18,500 nt of DNA from an uncultured Methanosarcinales archaeon (lineage in GTDB: Archaea > Nanobdellota > Nanobdellia > Woesearchaeales > JABIAG01): the NCBI GenBank assembly GCA_964427985.1, contig CAYRWJ010000019.1, positions 1 to 18,500 of the forward strand. Direction: 5' to 3'. The notes beneath the pieces were generated by a model. The model saw only the letters and a program-made list of their open reading frames with translations, was not told the origin of the DNA and did not search any database. The first letter of the stretch is position 1; every line of letters starts with the position of its first letter. Position numbers and translations under genes: made by a program. Shown piece after piece: positions 1,421 through 16,096 of this stretch.

Positions 1421-2149
1421 TTAATTCCAAGCAAATAAGAAGAAATCTAAATATTCTTTTGCTAAACTTTTATTTTTTATTAATATTAGAGTTGGAGTTG
1501 TGTCCCAATTCATTATAATTATTTTATCTTGAAAAATTCCAACATCTCCTGGAAAAGAAACTTTGCTAAATCTTGTTTTCCAGTACTTATGATTTATGAC
1601 TTTGTGTTGTTTTTTAAATTTACTTTCATTTTTTTTTGAAATTAATAAGTGTGAGATGATTTTTTTCTCTTTTTTTAATACGCCAGACCAGTCATAAAAT
1701 ATTTTAGCTTTTTTATCAGAACTAGATTTTCCTGTTCCGTAACTATAATGGATTGAATCGGGAGTTGAGTCTGAAAAAAACTCAATGATTGCGCCTCTTA
1801 AGGCTTTCATACCTTCAAACATTTTAACTTCGTTCTTATTATTTGATTTTTTTTGAAGAATTTTTAATTGATTTATATTATTTTCAATATTTCTTTTTTT
1901 TTCATTAAATAAATCTAAAATTTTGTTTGGGTCAGATGCTAAAAAATATTTAGTTTTAATTTTAGTAATCCAACTAACTAAACTTTTGTTTTCTAGTGAT
2001 TCTAGGACTGCGTATATTTTAGAGTTAGGTACTTGTGATTTTTTAGATAGTGGGCCCGTTGTGGTTTGTCCTAATTCTAATAATGCACAATAAACTTTTG
2101 ATTCACGTTCAGTAAGACCTATTTCTGTTAGTAATTCATTAACATTCAT
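1421..2149 (-). CDS. TrmB-like winged-helix transcriptional regulator, paralog 1 (242 aa)
   Basis: The N-terminus LTEIGLTERESKVYCALLELGQTT...IYAVLESLENKSLVS matches the TrmB-type HTH pattern, followed by a ~150-aa C-terminal domain. ATG start; divergent from SBP1. A TATA-like box is centred ~25 nt upstream of the ATG. Confidence 0.8.
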   Translation of the reverse strand: MNVNELLTEIGLTERESKVYCALLELGQTTTGPLSKKSQVPNSKIYAVLESLENKSLVSWITKIKTKYFLASDPNKILDLFNEKKRNIENNINQLKILQKKSNNKNEVKMFEGMKALRGAIIEFFSDSTPDSIHYSYGTGKSSSDKKAKIFYDWSGVLKKEKKIISHLLISKKNESKFKKQHKVINHKYWKTRFSKVSFPGDVGIFQDKIIIMNWDTTPTLILIKNKSLAKEYLDFFLFAWN

Positions 2150-2164
2150 GCTTGTTATAATCTG

Positions 2165-2197
2165 GTTGTATATTTAAATGTTTTTGTTACTTCTCCC
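2165..2197. promoter_or_regulatory. Conserved intergenic block A, copy 1 (TGTATATTTAAAT...TTCTCCC); candidate TATA/promoter of a leaderless trmB-like gene
   Basis: 33-nt block, about 27/33 identical to 4080-4112. It starts exactly 16 nt from the regulator ATG in both cassettes. The TATA-like core is 2167-2179. Confidence 0.5.
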
Positions 2198-2198
2198 T

Positions 2199-2230
2199 TG
2201 GGGGGTAAATGGAGTTTATATGTTGTTTTG
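2199..2230. promoter_or_regulatory. Conserved intergenic block B, copy 1 (GGGGTAA..ATGGAGT.TATA..GTTGT)
   Basis: Alignable by eye with 7993-8034 and 10048-10089. It lies 46-77 nt upstream of the SBP1 start. Confidence 0.45.
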
Positions 2231-2275
2231 CGTTATTTAACGATAAGGGGGATGAAATCGAGTAAACGAGGTAAA

Positions 2276-3328
2276 ATGAAATGGATAATGATTTTAGCAA
2301 TGTTACTTTTGTTAGTTGGTTGTAGTTCAACAAACACATTTAAAGTTGGAGTAATAGCTCCGCTGTCTGGAAATCAGGCATTTATAGGAAATGATTTCAA
2401 AGAGGGATTAGAATTAAATTCTGAAATAGAATATGTTTATCAAGATAGCCAAGGGAGTGTAATTGGTGCAGTATCAGCATATCACCAATTAAGAGTAGAG
2501 GATGTTGATGCAATGGTTGTTGTAAGTTCAGGAGATGAAGCAATACTTGAACTAGCAGATAAAGATGAAATTCCTTTGATTTTAACAGTATCATCCACTG
2601 GAGGTTTACCTTCAAAAAGTTCTTGGGTCTTTAGATATTTTACTAATGCAGATAGTGATGCTCCTGTAATTGTAGAATATGCAACTGAAGACTTGGAGTA
2701 TAATAATTTTGCAATTTTACATGTTGTAGATAATTTCGGATATAGTTATGCAACTGTTTTTCAATCAGAAGTTGAAAAAATGGGCGGAACCATAGTTGGA
2801 GTTGAACAATTTCAATATACTGATTATGAATACCGAACACAACTATTGAAATTAGAAGAAGAAAATCCGGATGCAATTTATGTTATAGGATTAGATTATC
2901 AGATTGCAGAAGCGCTAAAAGAAATAAATGAATTAAATATTGATGTTCAAGTATTATCTTTAGGGACAATAGCAACAGACTATGCAATTGGATTAGCAGA
3001 GGGAACAGCAGAAGGAGTTTACACAACTGCATTTTGCACAGATGGAACCCCTGAAAACTATAAATCTGAGTTTGAAGTAAAATATGGTTATGAACCTGGA
3101 TTCTTCTCAGAATTAGGAAATGACATTGATAACTTTATTGAGTTATCTGAAGCAGATGATAATGTTGAATTTAGAGATAATTTACTCTCTCTGAAAAATG
3201 TTGAATCAAATGCAGGACTTGTTAGTTCGGATTCAAATGGTGAGTTAATAATGCCTGTTTGTGTTAAGAAAATTCAAGATGGAAAAATATTGAATCTTCA
3301 AACAGGAAAATATTATAATGAAGATTAA
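2276..3328 (+). CDS. LivK-like (type I periplasmic-binding fold) substrate-binding lipoprotein, SBP1
   Basis: MKWIMILAMLLLLVGCSS is a signal peptide with a lipobox-like LVGC. FKVGVIAPLSGNQAFIGN and NPDAIYVIG are typical of Leu/Ile/Val-binding-protein-family SBPs. Start moved to ATG 2276 (GAGGT 4 nt upstream); the track's TTG at 2198 lies in the promoter region, and ATG 2252 is an alternative. Confidence 0.8.
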   Translation: MKWIMILAMLLLLVGCSSTNTFKVGVIAPLSGNQAFIGNDFKEGLELNSEIEYVYQDSQGSVIGAVSAYHQLRVEDVDAMVVVSSGDEAILELADKDEIPLILTVSSTGGLPSKSSWVFRYFTNADSDAPVIVEYATEDLEYNNFAILHVVDNFGYSYATVFQSEVEKMGGTIVGVEQFQYTDYEYRTQLLKLEEENPDAIYVIGLDYQIAEALKEINELNIDVQVLSLGTIATDYAIGLAEGTAEGVYTTAFCTDGTPENYKSEFEVKYGYEPGFFSELGNDIDNFIELSEADDNVEFRDNLLSLKNVESNAGLVSSDSNGELIMPVCVKKIQDGKILNLQTGKYYNED

Positions 3329-3335
3329 ATGTCTT

Positions 3336-4064
3336 TTATTTTTTTATTTTCCAAATAGCATCAAACATAAACCTAAATGAGTTGGCTATTTGTTTTGAAT
3401 TAATCATTACTGCGGTGGGGATGTCTTCAAAAGAAGCAATTAATACTGTATCTCCATAAATTCCAATTCCTCTTGGAGCAAAATCATTAACATACTTAAT
3501 TTGCCAATTTTTAACATTCTTAAAACGAGTTTCAAATACATTTTTATCAGAGCGGTTAACAATTAATTTAACTTTATATTTCATTTTAATTCGTTTTAAT
3601 TGATAATTTTCAAAGAAAACTTTTACTGATTTTGGTTCATTCTTATTTGAACCAAGAGCAAAAGCAAGATATTCACTTCCTTTTGGCAATATCTCAAGAA
3701 CAGAATTAAATGCAGTTTGGATTCCTTTCCAACCAATAAACATTTTAGTTTCAGGTTGGTTTTGGGAAAGTGAAATATTTTCTAGTTCAGGAATCAAGTC
3801 TGCAAGTTTAGATTTTTTATCTTCCCAAAGATGCATGATGTTTTTTGGTTCTGTTGCGGAGAAGTATTTAGTCTTAGATTTTATGATAAATGTAACTAAA
3901 CCTTTCTGAATTAAATCATCTAATGCTCTATAAACAACCGAACCTGCAATTTGAGCTATTTTTATTATGTTTCCAGACTTGGTTTGCCCCAACTCTAATA
4001 GTGTTGTGTAAACGATTATTTGGGAATCAGTTAAACCTATTTCTTCTAGTATTTTTAAATCCAT
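3336..4064 (-). CDS. TrmB-like winged-helix transcriptional regulator, paralog 2 (242 aa)
   Basis: LEEIGLTDSQIIVYTTLLELGQTKSGNI...VYRALDDLIQKGLVT. Same length and architecture as paralog 1; divergent from SBP2. Confidence 0.8.
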   Translation of the reverse strand: MDLKILEEIGLTDSQIIVYTTLLELGQTKSGNIIKIAQIAGSVVYRALDDLIQKGLVTFIIKSKTKYFSATEPKNIMHLWEDKKSKLADLIPELENISLSQNQPETKMFIGWKGIQTAFNSVLEILPKGSEYLAFALGSNKNEPKSVKVFFENYQLKRIKMKYKVKLIVNRSDKNVFETRFKNVKNWQIKYVNDFAPRGIGIYGDTVLIASFEDIPTAVMINSKQIANSFRFMFDAIWKIKK

Positions 4065-4079
4065 GGTAACTTTTTATTT

Positions 4080-4112
4080 GATGTATATTTAAATCTTTTT
4101 AATTGTTCTCCC
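4080..4112. promoter_or_regulatory. Conserved intergenic block A, copy 2
   Basis: GATGTATATTTAAATCTTTTTAATTGTTCTCCC starts 16 nt from the regulator ATG (4064), the same spacing as copy 1. Confidence 0.5.
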
Positions 4113-4191
4113 AAAAAGAATAACAAACTATTATATGTGGCTTTGTGTTCTCTAATTAGTAATGAAATCAACAATAAAAAGAGGGAAAAAG

Positions 4192-5241
4192 ATGAAATTT
4201 AAAATTTTATTTATTGTATTGTTAATCAGCTTAACTTTTTTAGTTGGTTGCGAAAAAAATACAAATGAAGAACTTGATGTTGCTTTAATTTTGCCTGTAA
4301 CTGGAAAAGGGGCAGGAGTTTCACAAGATTTTATGTATGGAATAGAACTAGCAAAAAAAGAATTGGGAAGTGATGAAATCAATTTTTATTTAGAAGATAC
4401 TCAAACAAATCCAAAAGAGGCAGTGACTGCATTAACACAATTATTGAGCACAAAAGAGATAGATTTAATCGTAACAATGCAAGCACAAACATCACAACCC
4501 TTATTAACAATTGCAGATCAAAATAATATTCCCATAATATCTACGTTAACATCACTTCGAAAAGAAGAATTTACACGAAAAAGTGAAAACGTTTTTTTAG
4601 ATTATCCGCTTCCAGAATATGAGATGAAACCAACAATTGAATTTATGCAAAACAAAGGGTTTGAAAATATAGCAACTCTAACTGTTCAGGATGAATTTGG
4701 AAACACAATGCTTTCATTATTAGATGAACAAGTTGAATTAGTTATTGAAGAGAAGTATTTGATATCTGAGTTAGATTATAGAACTCAATTAATTAAAATA
4801 AAAGAATTAAACCCTGATGCAATATACGTAATAGGATATCCTGCACATCTTATAAGTTTCTTGAAACAAAGAAAAGAATTAGACATGCAAGAAATTCCCG
4901 TAATCTCAACAATGCACATTCAAAGTGGGTTTGTAAGAGCAAAATCAAAAGGAATAATGGAAAATGTATATGCTGTAACTCCAATTTCTTTAGTTTAAGA
5001 TAACTCAGATTTTAGTGAAAGATTTGTTGAAATAAACGGGGTGGAACCTGATGTTTTAGCAGCGTATGGGTATGATTTAGTAATGATGTTAAATCAAATT
5101 AAAGATAAAGAAGATGTTAAAACTGCCCTGTATGAAGTAAACATTGAAGGAATTAATGGAAACATAAGTTTTAATGAATATGGCGAAATTGATATGCCTT
5201 TGGTGGTTGTAGAAGCAGAAGGAAGAACAATAGTTAATTAA
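4192..5241 (+). pseudogene. LivK-like substrate-binding lipoprotein SBP2, interrupted by a single in-frame TAA (4996-4998)
   Basis: ORFs 4162-4998 and 5041-5241 are in the same frame. Reading through the TAA gives ...AVTPISLV*DNSDFSERFVEINGVEPDVLAAYGYD..., a contiguous full-length SBP (~349 codons, like its paralogs). Signal/lipobox is MKFKILFIVLLISLTFLVGCEKN. The likely start is ATG 4192, preceded by GAGGG. Confidence 0.75.
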
Positions 5242-5243
5242 CG

Positions 5244-5270
5244 TCCACCAAAATAAATATCTTTTATTTT
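5244..5270. repeat. Direct repeat, left copy (27 bp perfect; 33 bp imperfect from 5238): orphan copy of the livF 3' end
   Basis: TCCACCAAAATAAATATCTTTTATTTT is identical to 5990-6016. The reverse complement of 5238-5270 reads ...KIKDIYFGGR*, the same C-terminus as the ATPase ORF. Confidence 0.9.
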
Positions 5271-5296
5271 AAAATCAAAACCTTTATATATTCTTG

Positions 5297-5313
5297 GATA
5301 CTTTTTAAGTATC
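5297..5313. promoter_or_regulatory. Perfect palindrome GATACTT-TTT-AAGTATC downstream of a TATA-like box (5283-5293); candidate operator of the RelE-type TA module
   Basis: A 7-bp inverted repeat with a 3-nt spacer sits between CCTTTATATATTC and the AGGTGA ribosome-binding site/ATG 5338. Confidence 0.45.
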
Positions 5314-5337
5314 AGTTGATGCTTAAAGGTGATAAAT

Positions 5338-5640
5338 ATGCAAAAGTTAAAAATTACAAAAAATGAATTAATCGAGAAAAAAAGGTTTAAAACAAAAAGA
5401 TATCCTAATTTAAATACTGTTTTAATGGTAGAAGACTTTTTGAAAGAACATAGCGTTCCAATGTCTTTGGCAAATCTAAAAAAAAAGCTTCCAAGACAGG
5501 TAATGCACCAAACTCTAAAAATTATTTTACAATACTTATGGAAAAGTGGAAAAATAATTTATGGACCTAAAGGAATACAATGGATATATGTTGAACCCGA
5601 ACATCTTAAACAAATGATGCAAGATTCTTTGGAATTGTAA
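5338..5640 (+). CDS. Putative antitoxin / small DNA-binding protein of the RelE-type module (100 aa)
   Basis: The call is positional. Its stop (5638-5640) is 1 nt from the toxin ATG. AGGTGA lies 6 nt upstream of ATG 5338 (the track's GTG 5329 is rejected). No recognisable family by eye. Confidence 0.45.
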   Translation: MQKLKITKNELIEKKRFKTKRYPNLNTVLMVEDFLKEHSVPMSLANLKKKLPRQVMHQTLKIILQYLWKSGKIIYGPKGIQWIYVEPEHLKQMMQDSLEL

Positions 5641-5641
5641 A

Positions 5642-5983
5642 ATGTTCATGGAAAAAGAGGTTAGAATTTTATTAAAAGGACAAGCTAAAGATTCTTATAT
5701 TAAGTTAAAGAAAAGAGAAGATAAAGAATCTAAAAGTATATTAAAATCTGTTGAAAGAGTTACAAATATTCTTAAAGAAAATCCTCAATTTGGGGATCCA
5801 ATTAAAAAGATGTTAATTCCTGATGAATTAAAAAAAGTAGGAATACAAAATATCTATAGAGTTGAATTATCTAATTATTGGAGGATGTTATATACTTTAG
5901 AAGGAAATGAAATAAGTATATTTCTTTTTGTTTTAAAAATATTTAATCATAAAGAATATAACAAATTTTTGGGATATAAATAA
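5642..5983 (+). CDS. RelE/ParE-superfamily toxin (113 aa)
   Basis: The C-terminal pattern NIYRVELSNYWRMLYTLEGNEISIFLFVLKIFNHKEY matches the RelE/ParE core (YR..L..YR.iY.i....i.il.i..R..aY). An ENPQFGDPI segment lies upstream. Tightly coupled to the preceding small ORF. Confidence 0.7.
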   Translation: MFMEKEVRILLKGQAKDSYIKLKKREDKESKSILKSVERVTNILKENPQFGDPIKKMLIPDELKKVGIQNIYRVELSNYWRMLYTLEGNEISIFLFVLKIFNHKEYNKFLGYK

Positions 5984-6898
5984 TTATCTTCCACCAAAAT
6001 AAATATCTTTTATTTTTTTATTTTTTAAAATATCTTTCTTGCCTTTTAATGCAATCTTACCATCTTCTAAAATATAAGTTGTGTCTGCAATCTCAACAGC
6101 TTGTTTAGCATTCTGTTCAACAATTATGACCGATATTCCTTCTTGATTTATTTTTTTAATTATTTTAAAAACTTCTTTCATAGCTTTAGGAGAAAGACCT
6201 AAAGAAGGTTCATCTAAAAGTAAAAGTTGGGGGTTTTGAATTAATGCTCTTGCTATTGCAAGCATTTGTTGTTGTCCGCCTGATAAAGTAAAATTCATAT
6301 CATGTTCTATTAATAAAATAGTATCACCTTGTTTTTTTAGTTGTTTGATAATTTTAGCAATAGTGTTTCGTAATTGTGGATTAACACCTGCAACAGGTTC
6401 ATCAAGCATTAATAATTTATGTGGGTTTAAGATTGACCTCGCAATTTCAGTTAAACGTTTTTGACCAAAACTAAGTTCTGATGTTTTTTTATCTTTGTGT
6501 GCATACATTTGAACTAGTTTTAAAATAGGATCAATATTTTTAAGATCTTTATTTAAACCTAAAAAGTTTTTCCAAAATTTAGTATCTTCTTGATTTGTTG
6601 CTAATTTTAAGTTTTCTTCAATAGTCAAGTTGCTAAACAAACGTGATTGTTGAAATAATCTAGAAATGCCCTTATTAGAAATTTGTTCAATTGGTAAACT
6701 AGTTATGTCTTGTTTATTAAAAACGATTTTTCCAGAATCTGGAGTAATAATTCCCGAAACAAGATTAAATAAAGTAGATTTACCAGAACCATTAGGACCA
6801 ATTAACGCAGTAATAGAATTTGGTTTGATTTCAAAACTACACCCATCAACAGCTTTAACGCCCCCAAAGTATTTTTTAAGGTTAGATATTTGTAACAT
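5984..6898 (-). CDS. livG/F: ABC ATPase: in-frame chimera of LivG (aa 1-~203) and the C-terminal ~100 aa of LivF; possibly non-functional
   Basis: The order is Walker A GPNGSGKST, Q-loop RLFQQ, signature LSFGQKR, Walker B LLMLDEP and H-loop LLIEHDM. A second signature LSGGQQQMLAIARAL then follows directly, with a second Walker B LLLLDEPSLGL, a LivF-type VEQN and the tail IYFGG. There is only one Walker A. Junction ~6287-6292. Confidence 0.85.
   Translation of the reverse strand: MLQISNLKKYFGGVKAVDGCSFEIKPNSITALIGPNGSGKSTLFNLVSGIITPDSGKIVFNKQDITSLPIEQISNKGISRLFQQSRLFSNLTIEENLKLATNQEDTKFWKNFLGLNKDLKNIDPILKLVQMYAHKDKKTSELSFGQKRLTEIARSILNPHKLLMLDEPVAGVNPQLRNTIAKIIKQLKKQGDTILLIEHDMNFTLSGGQQQMLAIARALIQNPQLLLLDEPSLGLSPKAMKEVFKIIKKINQEGISVIIVEQNAKQAVEIADTTYILEDGKIALKGKKDILKNKKIKDIYFGGR
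5990..6016. repeat. Direct repeat, right copy (inside the 3' end of the ATPase ORF)
   Basis: Identical 27-mer to 5244-5270. The extended 33-bp version (5984-6016) differs only in the Arg codon (TCT vs ACG on the + strand). Confidence 0.9.
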
Positions 6899-6929
6899 AT
6901 AGTATTAGTAATAAAGTGGTTAATAAATT

Positions 6930-7979
6930 TTATGATGTCACCCAGTTTTTACCATTAAATGTAAAGATGGTTGAGTTTCTGTTAACAATGCCGTTTTTAT
7001 TGAATTTTAAAGTTCCATCTAATCCTTCAAATTCAGAACTAAGCAAAGTATCTCTTATATATAAGTTATTACCTTTACAGTCTTTTATAATTGGAACTAT
7101 TAAATCAATAGACTCATAAAAATTATAAGACCAATCGTTTCCGATTGAATTAAATCTTGTTTTGAGTAAAAAATCAACAGCTTTTACTTTGGGGTTTTTT
7201 TCAATATAAAAATCTGAACCTATTCCTGAACTAAATACTTTCCCAAGTTCATTAATCGGATTGCATCCTCCTGTAATGTGGGGACAGATAAGTTGAAAAT
7301 CTTTCATGTTAAATGCCTCCATTTGTTTAATTAAAAGGGGCAAGTTTGTTGTAGAAATCCGCAAAAGAATAAAATCAGGATTTTGAGCTTTAATTTTCAT
7401 TAAATGAGTTTTGAAATCTTTATTTTCTCTATCAAAAAGTTCAATATTCAAATTAAAACCTGTGTCTTCAAATGCTTTAATACAGATAAGGGTGGATTCA
7501 GCATTCTGTCCTAATACGCTTCCTTTTTTCCCTTTCACCATTTTAGCTAATTCTTTACAATCTTTTTCAATGTCAATATAATTTTTAAAAACAAAAGAGT
7601 TTTCCTTTGCGGGAGAACTTAAAACTGAAGTATAAAATAAGGGTACTTTGTTAAGTTCTGCAATATCTGCTACAGATGCACTGACACTTGACATGGCAGT
7701 CATTATTAAATCCACCTGGTCAATATTTATTAATTTTAAAGCAGCACTTACAGATTTGCCTGTATCACCTTCATTATCTTCAATAATGAATTCAATATCG
7801 GGATAATCTTCTTTTTTTAATTCTAAAGATTCAAGTGCTTTTTCTCCATAATACGCAAAATGTCCTGAAACTGGGATTATAACTCCTATTTTGTATGTTT
7901 CATCTTTTACTGTATTGCCCGTTGTACATGCTGTAAGAACTAGTAAGAGTAACATTGTTATTATCATCCATATTTTCAT
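6930..7979 (-). CDS. LivK-like substrate-binding lipoprotein, SBP3
   Basis: MKIWMIITMLLLLVLTACTTG is a signal with a lipobox-like LTAC. YKIGVIIPVSGHFAYYG and NPDFILL are also present. AAAGGT lies upstream of the ATG. It sits directly upstream of the ATPase ORF on the same strand. Confidence 0.8.
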   Translation of the reverse strand: MKIWMIITMLLLLVLTACTTGNTVKDETYKIGVIIPVSGHFAYYGEKALESLELKKEDYPDIEFIIEDNEGDTGKSVSAALKLINIDQVDLIMTAMSSVSASVADIAELNKVPLFYTSVLSSPAKENSFVFKNYIDIEKDCKELAKMVKGKKGSVLGQNAESTLICIKAFEDTGFNLNIELFDRENKDFKTHLMKIKAQNPDFILLRISTTNLPLLIKQMEAFNMKDFQLICPHITGGCNPINELGKVFSSGIGSDFYIEKNPKVKAVDFLLKTRFNSIGNDWSYNFYESIDLIVPIIKDCKGNNLYIRDTLLSSEFEGLDGTLKFNKNGIVNRNSTIFTFNGKNWVTS

Positions 7980-7992
7980 TTTTACCTTTAAA

Positions 7993-8034
7993 GTGAGGTA
8001 ACTAAATGAGGTATATAAAGACTTGTTGTAATGA
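7993..8034. promoter_or_regulatory. Conserved intergenic block B, copy 2
   Basis: GTGAGGTAACTAAATGAGGTATATAAAGACTTGTTGTAATGA is ~31/42 identical to 10048-10089, although the flanking proteins are only about one-third identical. Confidence 0.5.
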
Positions 8035-8074
8035 TGATGGCAACACTTATATACTTCTTGGTTTTTGGTTAATC

Positions 8075-8800
8075 ATGATTATAGATATGTTAAAAGAAAT
8101 TGGGTTAAGTATAACTGAGGCAAAAGTATATTTAGCTTTACTTGAATTAGGTTCAGCTCTTGCGGGAGAGATAACAAAAAAGTCAGAAGTAAATAGAACA
8201 AATGTTTATGATGCGTTAGAACGCTTAATTGAAAAAGGGTTGGTTACCTACGTAATTAGTGCTAATAGGAAGGTGTTTGAGGCAGTACATCCTTCAAGAT
8301 TAAAAGAAATTTTGAAGGAAAAAGAAAACAATCTTAAAAAAGAAATGGGTTTGTTAGAATCTTTATATTCGGATAATAAAGAAAAAGAGGAAGCGATAAT
8401 ATACAAAGGAAAAAAAGGACTAAAATCAGTATTTGAAGATATACTTAATGAAAGCAAAACAATTTATGGTTATGGTGCAGAAGGCAAGTTTGTACAAATG
8501 TTTGGTCCTTATGCTGAAAACTGGCAAAAAAGAAGGATTAATAAAAAAATAAAAATGAACATAATCTGGACTGAAAAAGTGAGATCTAGAAAAATACAAA
8601 ATGTCAATAAACTGGAGCTGGTAAATAAACGCTTTATACCAAACACCTATGATTTTCCCTCAACTATTGCAATTTATGGCAATAAAACAGTAACAATAGT
8701 TTGGAGTGAACAACCTTTTGCATTTATGATTAAAAGTCAAGAAGTTGTTAAAAGTAATATTAACTTCTTTAAGATGTTATGGAAGATAGCTAAGGATTGA
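8075..8800 (+). CDS. TrmB-like winged-helix transcriptional regulator, paralog 3
   Basis: MIIDMLKEIGLSITEAKVYLALLELGSA...VYDALERLIEKGLVT. Start moved from 8006 to ATG 8075, by alignment with the N-termini of paralogs 1, 2 and 4 and because a TATA-like CTTATATAC is centred ~25 nt upstream (ATG 8087 also possible). Confidence 0.75.
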   Translation: MIIDMLKEIGLSITEAKVYLALLELGSALAGEITKKSEVNRTNVYDALERLIEKGLVTYVISANRKVFEAVHPSRLKEILKEKENNLKKEMGLLESLYSDNKEKEEAIIYKGKKGLKSVFEDILNESKTIYGYGAEGKFVQMFGPYAENWQKRRINKKIKMNIIWTEKVRSRKIQNVNKLELVNKRFIPNTYDFPSTIAIYGNKTVTIVWSEQPFAFMIKSQEVVKSNINFFKMLWKIAKD

Positions 8801-8882
8801 GTAATAATTATAAAACTAATTTTGAGGTATTATGGAAAAGTTCTAAAAAATATGACTTAACCAACCTATCTCTTAGTTAAAT

Positions 8883-10010
8883 TTAAATTTTACTAAACAC
8901 TTTTTCTCCATTTTTAATGCTAACTTCTTTGTAAACATCATTGCTAAGTACTGGGTCTCCATTTTCATCAAAATCCCATTTTGCTACTTTACCATCCCAG
9001 TTATTGTTAACTAAATAACTTTTAATGCAGGTAGTGTTTTCTTCACAAGTTAGTATGGCATCTTTAATGATGTATGCTGCATCATACATTGCAGCAGTAT
9101 GGAAAAAGTGAAATCCTGGTTTTTCTCCATAGGTTGTAATGTATTTTTGCAATAATTCTTCATTTTCAGCAAAAGGAAATACTGAAAAAGCATCGTTAGG
9201 AAGCGCTTTATCTGATTTCTCATAAACTGCAGTATCAATTACAGTTGGAGGTCCCATTATCTTTACTTTATTTAACAAACCAGATTCTTTCATCTGTTTT
9301 AAAATTCTTGCAGAGTCTTGAGCTGCTAATCCTGCTACAAAAACACCATCTACATTTTTAGAATCAATTTTGGTAATTATTGTTCTAAAATCAGTTGTTC
9401 CTGTTGGAAAGCTTTCAGTTAAAACAATTGAACCGCCTTTTTCCTTAAAGCTAGTTGCAAATTCATCAGCCCAACTTTTTGTGAATTCAGTTTGTTCAAC
9501 AATCATTGCAATACGATTTAATTCATATTTTTCTTTTGCTATTTCCCCAATAATTTTTGCTGCTTCTGTTGCTGCGGGAGATATTCTGAAAGCATATTCA
9601 AAATTATCGAAAAAACCAGTAGCAGTAGTTGTTGCTGCTAATATAATTATTTTATTTTCATTAGTTATAGGAGCAACAGGTCCGGATGCAGGAGTGCAAC
9701 TTGGTCCAAGAATAATTTTTATATCTTGAGCTAAAAGTTTGTTGGCTGCAGTAACAGCAGCATTTCCTGAACACATATCGTCTTCTAAGATAAATTCAAT
9801 TTGTTTTCCATTAACTCCACCTTCATTGTTAATTTCATCAATAGCAATCTTTGCAAAATTGGCTTCTGTAGTTCCTCCAACTGCCCAACCGCCAGTTAGA
9901 GCAAATAGGCCTCCAATTTTAATAGTATCGTTTTCTTCTACTTTATTTGAACATCCAACTAAAGTTATTAAAATCAATAGTAATATTGTTATAATTTTTA
10001 TTTTATTCAT
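8883..10010 (-). CDS. LivK-like substrate-binding lipoprotein, SBP4
   Basis: MNKIKIITILLLILITLVGCSNK carries the lipobox. IKIGGLFALTGGWAVGG, AIDEINNEGGVNGKQIEFILED and ILGP are classic Leu/Ile/Val-binding-family motifs. AGAGGTAAAAAC lies upstream of the ATG. Confidence 0.85.
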   Translation of the reverse strand: MNKIKIITILLLILITLVGCSNKVEENDTIKIGGLFALTGGWAVGGTTEANFAKIAIDEINNEGGVNGKQIEFILEDDMCSGNAAVTAANKLLAQDIKIILGPSCTPASGPVAPITNENKIIILAATTTATGFFDNFEYAFRISPAATEAAKIIGEIAKEKYELNRIAMIVEQTEFTKSWADEFATSFKEKGGSIVLTESFPTGTTDFRTIITKIDSKNVDGVFVAGLAAQDSARILKQMKESGLLNKVKIMGPPTVIDTAVYEKSDKALPNDAFSVFPFAENEELLQKYITTYGEKPGFHFFHTAAMYDAAYIIKDAILTCEENTTCIKSYLVNNNWDGKVAKWDFDENGDPVLSNDVYKEVSIKNGEKVFSKI

Positions 10011-10047
10011 AGTTTTTACCTCTTTTTTTATTGTTTTTACCTCTATT

Positions 10048-10089
10048 GTGGGGTAACCAAATGGAGTATATAATACGTTGTTGTCATAA
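10048..10089. promoter_or_regulatory. Conserved intergenic block B, copy 3
   Basis: GTGGGGTAACCAAATGGAGTATATAATACGTTGTTGTCATAA. It shares GTTGT(C/T)ATAATCTG with 2152-2165 of cassette 1. Confidence 0.5.
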
Positions 10090-10140
10090 TCTGACTACAA
10101 ACAGAAAAGTTTAATAATCAGTTAAAGTTTAAAGTTTAAC

Positions 10141-10869
10141 ATGGACGTTTATTCAGCATTAATGGAATTTGGATTGGAAAACAGAGAAACTAAAGTTTAT
10201 ACTGCTTTATTAGAATTAGGTCCAACAACAGCGTCACAACTAGCAAAAAAAGTGAGTATTCTAAGGCCTACAATGTATGAAGTTCTTAATAGAATGATGC
10301 AAAAAGGGGTAATAAGTAGTTCTATAAGTGGGGGGAAAAAAATATTTGAAGCAATAAAACCTAAAATTTTATTGCAAATTCTTGATGATAAGAAAAAAAT
10401 TCTTCAAGATTTTATTCCCGAATTGGAAGAATTAGTTAAAGTGGGACATACCGAACAAAAGGTAAGCACTTTTTTTGGAGAAAAAGGATTAAAAACAATA
10501 TATGATGATATGTTAGTTGAAGGAAAGACAATTTATCATATTTTAAATTATGTAGAACATTCAAAAGTATTTAAATTATATTGGACACAAAATTTTATTA
10601 AAAAAAGATTAGAAAAAGGAATACAATTTAAAGCAATAGTAAGTAAAATAATTGATAAAGAACTTGAAAAAACAGATAAAGCACGATTAAGAGAAATAAG
10701 AAAACTAAAAAAAGTAGAAGAGTTTAAAGCATCATTATTCATTTATGGAAATAAATGTGGTTTTTTTACAACAAAAGATAGTTTAATTGGTGTTTTAATT
10801 GAAAGCCCAACAATAACTGCGTCTCTAAAAATAATGTTTAACATATTGTGGAAGATAGCTAAGGATTAA
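10141..10869 (+). CDS. TrmB-like winged-helix transcriptional regulator, paralog 4 (242 aa)
   Basis: LMEFGLENRETKVYTALLELGPTTASQLA...MYEVLNRMMQKGVIS. The C-terminus ILWKIAKD is shared with paralog 3. Confidence 0.8.
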   Translation: MDVYSALMEFGLENRETKVYTALLELGPTTASQLAKKVSILRPTMYEVLNRMMQKGVISSSISGGKKIFEAIKPKILLQILDDKKKILQDFIPELEELVKVGHTEQKVSTFFGEKGLKTIYDDMLVEGKTIYHILNYVEHSKVFKLYWTQNFIKKRLEKGIQFKAIVSKIIDKELEKTDKARLREIRKLKKVEEFKASLFIYGNKCGFFTTKDSLIGVLIESPTITASLKIMFNILWKIAKD

Positions 10870-10900
10870 TCTTTTTAAAGAATAAATTTACATTACTGTC

Positions 10901-11779
10901 TCAGGAAGAATCTAATTCTACTCTTCCAAAGAAACCTTTAGGTCTATAAACTAAAATTAGTAAAAGTAATAACGCATAAATTATCTGCCTCATTGGGCCA
11001 ACAATACTAGAAGGAAAACCAATAAATCTTAAAGGTTCAGGAAGAAGTATTAAAATAATAGTTGCTATGGTTGTGCCTTTTAAAGATGCCAATCCTCCAA
11101 TGATTACAATAGCAATAACTGGAATAATTTGCATTAATGTAAAAGAAGAAGGATCAATAAATGTAATATAATGAGCATATAAACTTCCCGCAATTCCTGC
11201 AAAGAAAGCACTAATTCCCATAACATACATTTTCATCTTAAAAGTATTCTTACCAAGAGTTTTACTTGCTAATTCATCATCTCTAATAGATTCTAAAACT
11301 TTGCCAAAAGGAGATTTAATTATTTGTCTGATAACAAAATAAGTTATAATGCATATTATTATTGTTAAAATGAGAAAAGAAAAATTGTTTGTTATAGCTA
11401 AACCAAAAAAGTTAGGTTTAGGGATGCCTGGAATACCCAACGGCCCCCTAGTTAAAGAAACCCAATTTAATAATACTGCGTAGATAACAAAGAAGAATCC
11501 CAAAGTAGCTAAAGCAAGATAATCTCCTTTAAGTTTATTCAAAGGAAGAGATAATAAAAAACCAAATAACATTGCGACAATTCCTGCTGAAATAAAAGCA
11601 ATACTGAATGGAACTCCATTCATAACCATTAAAGCAGAAGTATAAGCACCAATACCATAAAAAGCAACATGGCCTATGTTAAGTAAACCACTATAACCAA
11701 TAGTAAGCTGTAAAGATAATGCTAAAATGAGATAAATACCTACCAAGATAGCTAAATGAATAAAATATGCTTCAATCAT
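10901..11779 (-). CDS. livM: Branched-chain amino acid ABC transporter permease, LivM type
   Basis: A polytopic membrane protein with the LivM-like SGLLNIGHVAFYGIGAYTSA motif. GAGG lies 6 nt upstream of the ATG. Confidence 0.85.
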   Translation of the reverse strand: MIEAYFIHLAILVGIYLILALSLQLTIGYSGLLNIGHVAFYGIGAYTSALMVMNGVPFSIAFISAGIVAMLFGFLLSLPLNKLKGDYLALATLGFFFVIYAVLLNWVSLTRGPLGIPGIPKPNFFGLAITNNFSFLILTIIICIITYFVIRQIIKSPFGKVLESIRDDELASKTLGKNTFKMKMYVMGISAFFAGIAGSLYAHYITFIDPSSFTLMQIIPVIAIVIIGGLASLKGTTIATIILILLPEPLRFIGFPSSIVGPMRQIIYALLLLLILVYRPKGFFGRVELDSS

Positions 11780-12197
11780 GTTTTTCCTCTAAATTTTTTT
11801 TAACTTGATAGATTGCATCTTTTAAATCAGTTATTAAATCTTTTGCTTCGATAGCATTAACTCTTTTTTTATAATAATTAATTCCATTTCTGATTTTTCT
11901 TAAATAATTAAATTTTATAGATAATTCATTTAAATTTAAAAATTCAGATATAAAAGAACAATAACATTCATGATTTTTTATTTTAAATCCATTTCTCATT
12001 GCTAAAGCTTCAAGAAACATTCTTAATATGTCATAGAAATCACAAACAATAGTTTCTGCGCTAAGGTTATTAATTTCTAAAGAATCAATAAATTTAAATT
12101 TTTCATCCGCTTTCTCTTTTAAAACCTTAATTAATAGTTTATCAACAAAAACGTCATCTTTCACAAATTTTTCTTTTTTACATTCAATCCAATCCAT
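11772..12197 (-). CDS. HEPN-like domain protein, putative toxin partner of the adjacent nucleotidyltransferase (141 aa)
   Basis: An all-helical-looking 141-aa protein immediately downstream of a minimal NTase (TAATG overlap). It has an ...KNHE... segment and a C-terminal LRKIRNGINYY segment. Its stop overlaps the livM start. The family call rests mostly on the conserved MNT-HEPN gene pairing. Confidence 0.55.
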   Translation of the reverse strand: MDWIECKKEKFVKDDVFVDKLLIKVLKEKADEKFKFIDSLEINNLSAETIVCDFYDILRMFLEALAMRNGFKIKNHECYCSFISEFLNLNELSIKFNYLRKIRNGINYYKKRVNAIEAKDLITDLKDAIYQVKKNLEEKHD

Positions 12198-12679
12198 TAT
12201 ATTATTAACCCTTTTTTTATATTTTTAATTAACTCTTCACTTTTGGCTGCATTTTTGAAAAATAATTGAATTTCTCGTTTCAATAGTTTTTCAGCTTTGG
12301 ATAAATCAATTTTTTTCTCAGGTAAATCAATAAATAAGTCTACATCTGAATTGATAGTATTTTCAACTTTAAATAATGAACCAAATAATGTTATTGGTTT
12401 AAACATTAACTCTTCTCTTAAAGGTTCTAAAACTTTTGTTAATCTTTTTCTCCAAAAAGCTTTAGTTAAATCTTTGAAAAAATCTGAAGTTTTGTTTGCC
12501 CTGAACATTAAATAAATTCTATCCTGTTTTTTTATTAATAATTCTTCTTTAGCAAATTGATTTAATAGTTTAGATGCAGTTGGCGGACTAATATCTTGCA
12601 TTCTTGCATATTCTCTTACAGAAATTTCTCTATAAACATCTTCGAAAAAAGGTTTTAAATTATTAAATATACTTAACAT
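12197..12679 (-). CDS. Winged-helix + minimal nucleotidyltransferase (MNT) fusion, putative antitoxin (160 aa)
   Basis: The N-terminal HTH-like segment is ISVREYARMQDISPPTASKLLNQFAKEELLIKK. The NTase motif is LFGSLFKVENTINSDVDLFIDL (GS...DxD). Confidence 0.75.
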   Translation of the reverse strand: MLSIFNNLKPFFEDVYREISVREYARMQDISPPTASKLLNQFAKEELLIKKQDRIYLMFRANKTSDFFKDLTKAFWRKRLTKVLEPLREELMFKPITLFGSLFKVENTINSDVDLFIDLPEKKIDLSKAEKLLKREIQLFFKNAAKSEELIKNIKKGLII

Positions 12680-12698
12680 ATGTTAAATATACTTAACA
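12663..12698. repeat. Tandem direct repeat, 2 x 16 nt (TTAAATATACTTAACA), period 20, straddling the MNT start codon
   Basis: Copies at 12663-12678 (first codons of the MNT gene) and 12683-12698 (immediately 5' of the ATG). The unit is near-palindromic (TTAAGTATATTTAA on the coding strand). Confidence 0.8.
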
Positions 12699-12746
12699 CT
12701 TGTTAATAAATGTTTCTATTTTAAAAGAAAAAATAAAAATTTTGTT

Positions 12747-13832
12747 TTATTCAATTGGAATAATTTCACCATCTTTAATAACGTGGATTGCATAGCTTTT
12801 TCCAATAGTGTCTCCATTCTCATCAAAGTTAGTAGTTCCCGTAGCACCTTTCCAATCTTTCACATTATATAACCATGCTTTAGCCTCTTCAATATTCCCA
12901 TTATTCTTAATTAAAGCTTCTAAAGTTAATAAGGTACAATCATAAATTCCTGAAGCAAAATACCCTGGTTCACTATCATATTTTATTTTATGTGTTGCAA
13001 CAAATTCTTTTAATTCTTCAGAATCTGGATCAACATAATAAGGAAAAAGAACGTCCTCTCCTAATTCCAAATCTTCTGTTTTTAAAATACTCATAAAGTT
13101 CTCAGAACCAATTAAGGGTAAGTTAATATCCAGTTCTTTAATCTCTTTAAGAATTGTAGGATAATGGTGCGAAATAACTACTAAAACATCTGGATTTTTA
13201 TTTTTTATTTTAATAAGTTGTGTTTTAAAATTTAAAGAAGTAACATCAAAACTTTCAGTAATAACAACTTCTCCCCCATTTTTTTCAACTTGGTTGATTA
13301 TAACTTCTTTAAGTCCGGTTCCATAATCATTAAGAATGTTTAATATTGCCACTTTTTCATATCCTTTTTCTGCAATAAGATCCGCAATATCATTACCCTG
13401 ATATAAATCGGAAGGATAAATTCTAAAAACATAATCTCCTGCATTGGTTATATCTGGACTACTTCCTCCTGTGATTAAAAGAACTTTATTTTCTTCAGCA
13501 ATTGGGGCCATAGCAAGAGTTTCGCTAGAACTTCCCGGAATAATCGCTTTAACTTGATCAATGTTAATTAGTTTTTGAGCAGCAGCAACGGATTTAGTAG
13601 AATCAAGTTGAGAATCTTCAATAATAAGTTTAACATCAACATTGTATTCCTTTTCAATTTTTTCAATACCTAATTGTAATGCTTTTTCAAAACCTTGTCC
13701 ATAATCTGCAGCAGGTCCTGTTAAGGGAATGACTGCACCAATTTTTATTGTTTCTTTTTCTTCTACTTCTTTAGAACAACCAATTAAAGTTATTAATGTA
13801 AGTAATAATAATATTGTAATTATTTTTTTCAT
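12747..13832 (-). CDS. LivK-like substrate-binding lipoprotein, SBP5 (no paired regulator)
   Basis: MKKIITILLLLTLITLIGCSKE carries the lipobox. IKIGAVIPLTGPAADYGQG, KLIIEDSQLD and NPDVLVV are also present. AGAGGTAAC lies upstream of the ATG. It sits between livH and the MNT/HEPN pair. Confidence 0.85.
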   Translation of the reverse strand: MKKIITILLLLTLITLIGCSKEVEEKETIKIGAVIPLTGPAADYGQGFEKALQLGIEKIEKEYNVDVKLIIEDSQLDSTKSVAAAQKLINIDQVKAIIPGSSSETLAMAPIAEENKVLLITGGSSPDITNAGDYVFRIYPSDLYQGNDIADLIAEKGYEKVAILNILNDYGTGLKEVIINQVEKNGGEVVITESFDVTSLNFKTQLIKIKNKNPDVLVVISHHYPTILKEIKELDINLPLIGSENFMSILKTEDLELGEDVLFPYYVDPDSEELKEFVATHKIKYDSEPGYFASGIYDCTLLTLEALIKNNGNIEEAKAWLYNVKDWKGATGTTNFDENGDTIGKSYAIHVIKDGEIIPIE

Positions 13833-13886
13833 TCTTGTTACCTCTGGTTTAATTCATTATTAATTTATTTATTCTTAAATGTTGTG

Positions 13887-14759
13887 TTAATCTTTCTTTT
13901 TTATACCCAAAATGCCTGTTGGTTTAAATATTAAAAATATGAATAATATTACAAAAGCAATAGCATCCTTATATCCTGAAGGAAGATACCAAATACCATA
14001 ATTTTCTGCAAAGCCAAGTAAGAATGAACCAAGAACTGCGCCTGGAACAGAACCAATACCCCCAATAATCGCACCAGTAAACCCCTTAATAATAAGATTA
14101 GTTCCCATTGTAGGTTCTAAATTTTGTTCTAACCCAATAAGTATCCCTGCAATACCTGCAATGGTAGAACCTAAAACCATCGCCCACATATAAATACGTT
14201 CAGAAGAAATGCCAACAATTGAAGCAACATCTTTATTATCACTAACTGCTCTCATTGCTTTACCTAACTTAGTCTTTTTCATAAAAAAATATAAAGAAAT
14301 AAGCAAAATCGCAGCTACAATTATAATTACAACTTGTAAAGGAGTTATGATAGCACCCATAAATTCCATACCCTTAGCAACTTTTAAATAACCAATAGTT
14401 TTAACATCAGCACCAAAAAATATCAAAATAAGAGATTCAAGTAATATAAGAAGAGCAAAACTAGCAATTAATAAAATGACCGTAGATGCCTTTTTTATTC
14501 TTAACTGTTTGTAAATGTGATGCATACCATAACCTAATAGTGATGCGCAAATCAAAGCTAAAATAATAGAAAAACCAAAATTAATATTTAATATGGTAAA
14601 AAATAAGTAAAGAAAATATGCACTAAACGCAACAGTAACACCATGAGCAAAATGAATAATTTTAGATGTTGAATAAATTAAAGAAAATCCTGTGGCTACT
14701 AAAGCATAAATTGCTCCTGCAATTAAACTATTAACAAATAATTGTGCAACAATTGACAT
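13887..14759 (-). CDS. livH: Branched-chain amino acid ABC transporter permease, LivH type
   Basis: A polytopic membrane protein with the LivH-like N-terminus LIAGAIYALVATGFSLIYSTSKIIHFAHG. Confidence 0.85.
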   Translation of the reverse strand: MSIVAQLFVNSLIAGAIYALVATGFSLIYSTSKIIHFAHGVTVAFSAYFLYLFFTILNINFGFSIILALICASLLGYGMHHIYKQLRIKKASTVILLIASFALLILLESLILIFFGADVKTIGYLKVAKGMEFMGAIITPLQVVIIIVAAILLISLYFFMKKTKLGKAMRAVSDNKDVASIVGISSERIYMWAMVLGSTIAGIAGILIGLEQNLEPTMGTNLIIKGFTGAIIGGIGSVPGAVLGSFLLGFAENYGIWYLPSGYKDAIAFVILFIFLIFKPTGILGIKKKD

Positions 14760-14853
14760 AATAAAAAAAAATAAAGGAAGTTAATAAACTTTACTTAAAA
14801 TAACATATTTTCCTAATGCTTACTAATATTTTAATTTGGAACCAGGCAAAACC

Positions 14854-15438
14854 TTAATCATAATAAATTAAGCCAACACGACTTCCATAAGGGATAGATT
14901 CGGGAAGGGTGTTGTTCTGAATCCAATACATTTTTTTGTCTACAGTTTCAGCAGTTTCAAATACATTAATACCAAAAGATTCCATTGCAGGAAAAACATC
15001 TCCTTCGTGAGAACAGATTCCATTTTTAAGAAGTTCACAATCAATATTATTACAAAACACTTTTTTACAAGGACCTGCTGCTAAAAGAAGAAATCTTTTA
15101 TGTCCTGAGTTTTGTAATTCATCTTTTAAGTTTTTTAACAATTCATAAATAATTTGTTGACTTTTTGCGGGTAAACTTTTTTTATAACCTTCCCAAGTTA
15201 GTTCTTTACTTGGAACTTTAATAAAGATTAAATATGCTTTTTTGAAAGATTTAATTTTAGCTTCACCTTTTTTATTGAAATCATTTTTGATATTGGGACA
15301 ATGTCCGCTTATATTTGATAAACCACAATGATTTAAACACCAATCTAAAATCGATTTGCCATAAAATTTAGAAAAGGAAATCTGACTAATTGAAAGGGGG
15401 ATTGTTTCAATTTCATACTCTTTAGGAATTTCAATCAT
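14854..15438 (-). CDS. Cys-rich predicted metal-binding protein (DUF2284-like, by eye)
   Basis: Cys clusters are CLNHC...GHCP and GPCKKVFCNNIDCELLKNGIC, followed by PAMESFGINVF. This resembles the DUF2284/COG5423 pattern as I recall it; not verified. Confidence 0.45.
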   Translation of the reverse strand: MIEIPKEYEIETIPLSISQISFSKFYGKSILDWCLNHCGLSNISGHCPNIKNDFNKKGEAKIKSFKKAYLIFIKVPSKELTWEGYKKSLPAKSQQIIYELLKNLKDELQNSGHKRFLLLAAGPCKKVFCNNIDCELLKNGICSHEGDVFPAMESFGINVFETAETVDKKMYWIQNNTLPESIPYGSRVGLIYYD

Positions 15439-15520
15439 GAATGGTTTAAGTGTTATTGTTTATTTAACTTTTCCCCCCATATTAATAAGATTTAAATACT
15501 TGAATTGATAAATAAATAAA

Positions 15521-16096
15521 ATGCTATTTGAAACACTATTTGCAACATTATTTGATTTGTTCCAAGGACAGATAGATTTCTTTTCAGGATTGTTTACTAA
15601 AATAATGATATCTGCAATATTTTTAATATTTGGATTAGTTATTGGGCGGTTGGCAGGGAATTTTACAAAAAGAATATTAAAAGAAATAGAATTAAATAAA
15701 ATACTTAAAAAAACAGCAAATATCAATATGGAAATGGAAGACCTGGTGGGGCAAGTAGTAAGTTATATAATTTATTTTTTTGCAGTACTAATGGCATTAA
15801 GTCAATTAGGAATAACTACAACCGTATTAACTGTAATTGCAATAGGAGTTGTTGTTATAATCGTATTAACCTTTATTTTGGGTGTTAAAGATTTTATTCC
15901 AAATATGATAGCGGGAATAATGATTAACAAAAATAAGTTATTTAAAGAGGGTGATGTTATTGATGTGGCGGGAGTAAAAGGAAAAGTAATACATCTAAAA
16001 TTAATAGAAACAGAAATAAAAAGTAAAAATGATTCAATATTTATACCTAATTCTACAATATTGAAAAATAGATTAAAAATAGTTAAGAAAAGTTAA
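15521..16096 (+). CDS. Small MscS-family mechanosensitive channel (191 aa, short form)
   Basis: Three hydrophobic helices, then the MscS beta-domain pattern NMIAGIMINKNKLFKEGDVIDVAGVKGKVIHLKLIETEIKSKNDSIFIPNSTI. A TATA-like GATTTAAATAC is centred ~27 nt upstream of the ATG. Confidence 0.7.
   Translation: MLFETLFATLFDLFQGQIDFFSGLFTKIMISAIFLIFGLVIGRLAGNFTKRILKEIELNKILKKTANINMEMEDLVGQVVSYIIYFFAVLMALSQLGITTTVLTVIAIGVVVIIVLTFILGVKDFIPNMIAGIMINKNKLFKEGDVIDVAGVKGKVIHLKLIETEIKSKNDSIFIPNSTILKNRLKIVKKS

Follow-up and report, generated by a model that had tools for sequence, protein, structure and literature searches.

A livG::livF hybrid ATPase gene, very likely deletion-derived and probably inactive, in the transporter locus of an uncultured Woesearchaeota archaeon

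An uncultured Woesearchaeota (DPANN) archaeon carries, in its liv transporter locus, an ATPase gene that begins as livG and ends as livF. That this hybrid is a real gene, derived by deletion, is very likely, and it is just as likely that the deletion was mediated by a microhomology and, being in frame, made the hybrid. With distinctly less assurance, we favour reading the gene as the outcome of a recent deletion that probably inactivated it, within a transporter locus that changes fast.

The locus and its relatives

The window, i.e., the whole stretch of DNA analysed, is 18.5 kb long and has a GC content of about 28%. Its transporter genes comprise livH, livM, six SBP genes (one with a nonsense codon) and the one hybrid ATPase; as had been read from the sequence at first, there is no second ABC ATPase ORF elsewhere in the 18.5 kb. 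A HAAT-type locus has two permeases, two distinct ATPases and at least one SBP, a set that is not complete within the window. The permease genes are as follows.

10901..11779, minus strand: livM-type permease, intact, 91% amino acid identity to the nearest relative; in relatives, livG directly follows livM
13887..14759, minus strand: livH-type permease, intact, 90% amino acid identity to the nearest relative

The nearest sequenced relative is the Woesearchaeota MAG GCA_018675265.1 (L001), whose locus is present, too, on a JGI contig of 1.1 Mb and in SI048_bin101 (L001, L002, L010). Synteny of the window with L001 extends from the L37ae/prefoldin genes as far as the thermosome gene, with a nucleotide identity of 70-84%. 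Both ATPase genes of L001 are intact: livG (243 aa) starts one base past the stop codon of livM, and livF (234 aa) is separated from it by 4.1 kb, in which lie a TrmB gene, a small ORF, an SBP gene, a second TrmB gene and a second SBP gene. L100 is a more distant relative (58-73% identical in two BLASTP comparisons), in which TrmB-SBP modules spanning about 10 kb stand between livM and livG, and a split SBP gene and livF come after livG.

Composition of the hybrid

The hybrid ORF, its two parts and its motifs are arranged as follows.

5984..6898, minus strand: hybrid livG::livF ORF, 304 aa, ATG start
6293..6898, minus strand: livG-derived part, codons 1-202; blastn match to L001 livG 10001-10621, 79% nucleotide identity
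6284..6292, minus strand: junction TTT ACT TTA (Phe203-Thr204-Leu205), codons common to both parents; microhomology of at most 9 nt
5984..6283, minus strand: livF-derived part, codons 206-304 and stop; blastn match to L001 livF 15279-15573, 84% nucleotide identity
6773-6799, minus strand: Walker A, G34-T42, the sole Walker A of the hybrid
6647-6661, minus strand: Q-loop, R80-Q84
6455-6475, minus strand: signature 1, LSFGQKR, L142-R148
6395-6415, minus strand: Walker B 1, LLMLDEP, L162-P168
6296-6316, minus strand: H-loop 1, LLIEHDM, L195-M201
6266-6286, minus strand: signature 2, LSGGQQQ, L205-Q211, overlapping the junction
6206-6226, minus strand: Walker B 2, LLLLDEP, L225-P231
6110-6127, minus strand: H-loop equivalent 2, IIVEQN, I258-N263

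The blastn alignments extend into the junction on either side, window 6284-6898 aligning to the L001 livG segment and window 5991-6285 to the L001 livF segment. At the protein level, residues 1-206 are 81% identical to L001 LivG (P0002) and residues 198-304 are 89% identical to L001 LivF, residues 203-304 (about 89-90% identical) corresponding to the C-terminal 102 aa of LivF. The NCBIfam profiles divide the protein at the same place: residues 1-203/204 match LivG NF008449 (profile 5-217 of 255) and UrtD, and residues 204-303 match LivF NF008626 over profile positions 137-237 of 237 only. When the halves were scanned apart, LivG/UrtD was the top match for the first and LivF for the second, so that a LivF origin of the second motif set, proposed from the sequence alone, is confirmed by the profiles. 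Pfam finds two ABC_tran stretches, and sequence matches in the PDB pair residues 2-206 with MJ1267 LivG (1G6H, 8-218) and residues 201-302 with TM1139 (1JI0, 136-238). Taken with the motifs, these NCBIfam, Pfam and PDB matches bear out what the sequence-only reading had described, namely an in-frame LivG::LivF chimera in which the set of signature, Walker B and H-loop occurs twice and the Walker A once.

Each parent is represented only in part. The hybrid lacks about the last 38 aa of LivG (the first reading had put this at about 45), including the LivG-specific PF12399 (BCA_ABC_TP_C) tail, which is listed on nearly every LivG match and is absent from the hybrid's own entry among the 120 matches listed. 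It also lacks about the first 132 aa of LivF, close to the 130 given earlier, so that the Walker A, the Q-loop and most of the helical subdomain of LivF are gone. Of the missing livG 3′ and livF 5′ sequences nothing is left elsewhere in the window; the sole liv ATPase remnant there is at 5241-5270, where 10 codons from the livF 3′ end persist as a relic.

The protein belongs to ABC_tran (PF00005), with E=8.8e-46, profile positions 2-137 of 137 covered by residues 18-170 and the motifs in canonical order; the second, partial motif set lies C-terminal to this canonical one. Its score with the LivG profile NF008449, where the match ends at position 217 of 255, is 224.5 bits (cut-off 362), and with the LivF profile NF008626 it is 206 bits (cut-off 441). 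Because both scores fall short of the cut-offs and the defining parts of each protein are missing, none of the names LivG, LivF and LivGF fusion should be given to the hybrid.

The junction

Across the junction the hybrid reads IEHDMNFTLSGGQQQ, the Phe-Thr-Leu codons being TTTACTTTA at 6284-6292; the earlier estimate of about 6287-6292 was correct to within one codon. At the corresponding sites the L001 nucleotides are TTTACATTA in livG and TTCACACTA in livF, and the L001 proteins read IEHDMNFTLNIAD in LivG and DDYAFTLSGGQQQ in LivF, both with Phe-Thr-Leu. This tripeptide is kept at both sites in L100 as well, in livG and in livF. The join is out of register, LivG position 203-205 having been brought together with LivF position 133-135, and since the shared codons are in the same frame in both genes, an out-of-register deletion could nevertheless stay in frame. 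It had been recognised before that the join does not lie at homologous positions; the site is not an arbitrary one, being placed on the 9-nt Phe-Thr-Leu microhomology of the two parents.

It had also been suggested that the contig might be misassembled here, and it could be supposed that separate livG and livF genes were collapsed or joined into a chimeric contig. Both contigs that carry the hybrid are short-read metagenome assemblies, and the many paralogous SBP/TrmB modules of the locus could mislead assemblers. Nonetheless, the junction is carried in identical form by the JGI metagenome contig Ga0208904_1010563 (L003), of 4270 bp and from sample 3300025669, which matches window 3042-7311 at 100% identity across the join. 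The parents have at most 9 nt in common at the join, far below the k-mer sizes of assemblers, and the longest exact word common to L001 livG and livF, which is also the only longer one, has 16 nt and lies at the Walker A, about 0.5 kb away. Moreover, an in-frame join at a codon-level microhomology is what a biological deletion would give. With an identical junction on a second contig and no long k-mer common to the parents at the join, an assembly artefact is very unlikely. When JGI metagenome contigs were searched for exact matches to the 26 nt that flank the join on the livG side, five unrelated contigs were returned, and neither the window population nor an intact allele was among them.

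Origin of the hybrid

According to the proposed mechanism, the deletion would have joined livG codons 1-205 to livF codons 133-234 at the identical Phe-Thr-Leu stretch. The product would then consist of the complete nucleotide-binding core of LivG, up to six residues beyond the H-loop histidine, followed by the signature helix, the Walker B strand and the H-loop strand of LivF as a second copy and then by the LivF tail, the C-terminal tail of LivG and the entire N-terminal half of LivF having been removed. When related genomes were searched for an intact pair or for the same fusion, intact livG and livF were found in L001 and the fusion only on L003. Set against the split from the nearest sequenced relative, the deletion is recent.

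In the window, a block without orthologue in L001 stands where livG would be expected to begin.

6899..10900: the block (4 kb), made up of two TrmB-SBP modules and bounded exactly by the livM stop codon and the former livG start
6930-7979: SBP gene of the block
8006-8800, plus strand: TrmB gene of the block
8883-10010: SBP gene of the block
10141-10869: TrmB gene of the block

The simplest history would thus comprise the insertion of this block between livM and livG, plus the livG-livF deletion, and the modules between livM and livG in L100 are a direct precedent for such a two-event history. Among the relatives, livG and livF are adjacent in L006, L012, L022, L023 and L027, and they are 0.5-7.6 kb apart, with SBP/regulator modules between them, in L001, L008, L011, L013, L020, L021, L025, L026 and L030. 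Because the spacing varies in this way, the deletion could have removed anything from about 0.5 kb (genes adjacent) to about 4.7 kb (an L001-like arrangement). A deletion across livG and livF was already part of the sequence-only reading and stands; its size of about 0.5 kb presumed adjacency, and with the L001 genes 4.1 kb apart it has to be widened to 0.5-4.7 kb. Both this range and the order of the deletion relative to the insertion of the 4-kb block are deduced by parsimony.

There is another route by which the same arrangement could have arisen. In the ancestor, livG and livF could have been separated by the 4-kb block. Template switching or patch replacement, with its end at Phe-Thr-Leu, would then have put a copy of the 5′ 0.6 kb of livG in place of the 5′ portion of livF, and the original livG beside livM would have been deleted afterwards. 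The order and orientation of the block (TrmB-, SBP+, TrmB-, SBP+) are indeed those of the L001 livG-livF spacer; the hybrid follows an SBP gene after about 31 nt, as L001 livF does after 34 nt; and the SBP gene at 8883 and the TrmB gene at 8006 find their best L001 matches, by a small margin, in the positionally equivalent genes. However, this route needs three events rather than two. The genes of the block are only 25-31% identical in amino acid sequence to those of the L001 spacer, i.e., at the level of paralogues, whereas the flanking orthologues are 57-91% identical, and the TrmB gene at 10141 and the SBP gene at 6930 fail to pair with their positional counterparts. L100, with TrmB-SBP modules between livM and livG and with livG and livF downstream, offers a precedent for the simpler scenario. 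Between the intergenic sequence upstream of the hybrid and the L001 SBP-livF spacer there are short AT-rich matches only, which carry no weight at 28% GC. Copying of livG over livF is quite unlikely, and insertion plus deletion is the preferred account.

Rates of change since the fusion

If the hybrid had evolved without constraint for some time, an excess of changes would be expected on its branch. In Tajima-type relative-rate tests of the LivG part with 14 outgroups, the hybrid had 4-12 unique changes and L001 LivG had 8-15, and in those of the LivF part with 13 outgroups, the hybrid had 1-5 and L001 LivF had 3-6, so that there was no excess of change on the hybrid branch in either part. The sole nominally significant LivG test (outgroup P0033, p=0.012) placed the excess on the L001 branch and not on that of the hybrid. 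Measured against L001, the LivG part has a dN/dS of 0.092 and the LivF part one of 0.054; the values for comparison are 0.072 (livM), 0.075 (livH) and 0.063 (thermosome gene), with dS at about 1.1. By relative-rate tests and dN/dS, no period of neutral evolution is detectable in either half. The lack of acceleration implies either that the deletion is very recent or that the product is still under selection. If it is very recent, its age would be, as a rough estimate, a few per cent of the divergence at most. Selection after the fusion is represented by two contigs only, which are identical and thus carry no population polymorphism.

Predicted structure

The hybrid was modelled with AlphaFold from a MAFFT alignment (A2), in which LivF fragments were set on the first motif set and residues 206-268 were left without aligned homologues, which biases the model towards an NBD plus insertion. 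Aligned in A2 with both families, the hybrid appears as an NBD with a 63-aa insertion (206-268) that repeats elements of the core, and with a LivF-type tail. The model has a mean pLDDT of 82 and a pTM of 0.63. Most of residues 1-203 are predicted with high confidence. The exception is residues 104-118, where pLDDT falls below 50, and the LivG control has a low at 104-114 as well. Beyond residue 203, pLDDT is 61-85. The control, an intact LivG, reached a pLDDT of 88.5 and a pTM of 0.84, with 92-96 in its C-terminal part. In Foldseek comparisons about 205-211 residues of the hybrid superpose on NBD structures at about 3 Å, and full-length alignments give an rmsd of about 14 Å, which indicates that the position of the LivF-derived part in the model is not that of a normal NBD. 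The prediction is one of a normal NBD core of about 205 residues, with the LivF part uncertainly placed; its confidence values bear on the fold and not on function.

Is the hybrid active?

Provided that the gene is real, its product is probably non-functional, to judge from its sequence and its predicted fold. Loss of ATPase function, which had been put forward from the sequence, seems plausible, and we infer that the hybrid is a loss-of-function or badly crippled allele. What counts towards a defect is that the PF12399 tail is absent, that the NCBIfam scores are well under their cut-offs, that core elements are repeated in an insertion of 63 aa, and that the model has a pTM of 0.63 rather than 0.84 and superposes on known structures over about 205-211 residues only. 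On the opposite side, the frame is open, all catalytic motifs of both halves are unchanged, and the window retains livH, livM and five SBP genes in intact form.

These last observations would suit a working ATPase, in which residues 1-203 and the LivF tail (about 265-304) form one NBD that tolerates the duplicated 63 aa and drives LivHM, either as a homodimer or together with a LivF or LivG encoded elsewhere. The low dN/dS (0.05-0.09) without rate acceleration would fit as well, although a deletion that is simply recent predicts the same data. The LivF tail is homologous to the lost LivG tail (41% identity) and is aligned to it in A2, but residues that are invariant in the LivG tail (P227 and A239 of P0002) are not kept. 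AlphaFold predicts native-like secondary structure throughout, yet the pTM drops and the LivF part lies off the canonical position, the extra Walker B and H-loop strands being elements of a hydrophobic core that have no partner half-domain. An intact SBP gene lies 31 bp upstream of the hybrid on the same strand. Against a working ATPase there is also the distribution of the protein, which stands alone in the collection searched: among the 120 matches listed, the only ones of full coverage were the hybrid's own protein and complete tandem fusions of about 510 aa. Importers of the HAAT family, for example LivHMGF of E. coli, use two different ATPases, which likewise tells against this reading. 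Taken together, both the formation of one NBD in this manner and its driving of LivHM are unlikely.

A more radical version can be imagined by analogy. In the normal NBD dimer, the H-loop of one subunit and the signature of its partner meet at the same ATP gamma-phosphate, and in the hybrid the LivF signature begins six residues beyond the LivG H-loop histidine. The LivF piece might fold back and complete the LivG ATP site within the chain, or a homodimer might energise LivHM, in either case giving an active minimal ABC ATPase; we regard this as highly improbable. If it were true, one gene would have replaced the LivG/LivF pair in a reduced DPANN genome, and any activity of the hybrid would mean that an ABC importer could run on one rearranged NBD. 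If the hybrid is dead, as we think probable, the LivHM-type importer of this population is without a normal LivG/LivF pair, barring copies elsewhere in the genome.

A transporter locus in flux

The deletion is one of several recent disruptions in the locus, the others being a nonsense codon in an SBP gene, two small inserted cassettes and the gain and loss of TrmB-SBP modules. The following features are concerned.

4162-5241, plus strand: SBP gene with an in-frame TAA at 4996-4998
5230..5270: 41-nt direct repeat, copy 1
5976-6016: 41-nt direct repeat, copy 2, at the 3′ end of the hybrid; 90% identical to copy 1, 746 nt apart
11772-12679, minus strand: nucleotidyltransferase (PF01909, weak MntA-like match) and a 141-aa ORF without family match

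In the SBP gene at 4162-5241, the stop codon stands where the L001 orthologue has AAA (Lys), i.e., it is a single-base nonsense mutation, and the gene is otherwise colinear with this orthologue, at 64% amino acid identity. Its dN/dS of 0.17 is like that of intact SBP genes, which implies that the nonsense mutation is recent. The 41-nt repeat corresponds to the overlapping 3′ ends of livF and of the convergent SBP gene, and because it includes the livF 3′ end, copy 1 retains on the minus strand the orphan relic mentioned above, i.e., the last 10 livF codons and stop (KIKDIYFGGR*). The two copies bracket a 746-bp cassette with two ORFs (5329-5983; 103 aa and 113 aa), and since the 113-aa ORF has only sub-threshold ParE_like/RelE matches (E=0.001 and 0.057), a toxin-antitoxin label for the cassette is tentative. 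The nucleotidyltransferase pair lies between the SBP gene at 12747-13832 and livM, overlaps the livM start by 8 nt and occupies the place of an L001 SBP gene (8028-9086).

An array of Peripla_BP_6 SBP genes, most of them with a TrmB-family gene, surrounds a single livH/livM pair in the window (1421-14759), in L001 (3839-19349) and in L100 (153-16124). The window, its relative with 75-84% identity, and L100 have strongly differing sets of TrmB-SBP modules; in L100, 16 kb hold eight SBP genes (one split) and six TrmB genes. Such differences suggest that cassettes of an SBP with its own regulator are rapidly gained, lost and replaced. In the protein collection searched, the SBP gene at 6930-7979 found no more than three homologues, all distant, and one of these is on L100. 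A TrmB gene and an SBP gene that lie between the DUF2284 gene and livH in L001 (3839-5761) are absent from the window (14760-14853). In the TrmB gene at 8006-8800, the conserved N-terminus (MLKEIGLS...) comes 27 codons downstream of the listed start. Translation probably begins near 8087, and the divergent intergenic sequence towards the SBP gene at 6930-7979 would then be about 107 bp long.

Significance and comparison with known systems

A complete liv set was present in only one of nine Woesearchaeota MAGs (PMC11606122). If our main reading is true, the hybrid is a single-step case of the erosion of a transporter locus in DPANN, caught before secondary decay. An annotation should call the hybrid neither LivG nor LivF, nor should it count the population's liv importer as complete. 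The rapid turnover of TrmB-SBP modules around one permease pair may matter more than the hybrid itself.

The closest known systems are the LivG/LivF ATPases of the HAAT/LIV-I importers (TC 3.A.1.4), with which the hybrid shares orthologue-level matches (residues 1-205 to LivG, 203-304 to LivF) and the livH, livM and Peripla_BP_6 neighbours. Unlike the LivG/LivF pair, it is one polypeptide, in which one Walker A is accompanied by two sets of signature, Walker B and H-loop. It resembles the LivG-LivF tandem fusions of about 510 aa in having both types of sequence in one frame. Full tandem fusions of about 500-530 aa were found in Rectinema, Neobacillus, Brevibacillus, Kyrpidia and Leucobacter (P0007-P0011, P0068, P0083, P0105); these have two complete NBDs and two Walker A motifs and are kept across genera, whereas the hybrid has about 1.4 NBDs in 304 aa, is recorded from a single population and is 31-42% identical to the fusions. 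A search for homologues of the LivF part (101-aa query) returned short proteins only (85-177 aa), the known orthologue of 234 aa not being among them.

Broken LivF genes occur in other DPANN loci. In L095 (2954-3361) there is an orphan 5′-truncated LivF, comprising residues 99-234, whose called product of 94 aa is found on about 20 contigs, and in L098 (989-1756) an orphan full-length LivF with an in-frame stop in the Q-loop; neither relic has liv permease or SBP genes near it. Like the hybrid, these relics are broken liv ATPase genes in reduced archaeal genomes. They are truncated or interrupted orphans, whereas the frame of the hybrid is open and permease and SBP genes are still beside it.

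When a deletion runs from one paralogue into its neighbour, the 5′ part of the first is fused to the 3′ part of the second; such hybrid genes are of the Lepore type. The livG::livF gene is like them in that one deletion between paralogues on the same strand would have produced an in-frame hybrid. The Lepore type arises by homologous unequal crossover, in register, whereas livG and livF were joined out of register at a 9-nt microhomology, and as a consequence part of a domain was duplicated rather than exchanged. The hybrid adds a case to a known class of event, deletion between paralogues, and does not represent a new type of system.
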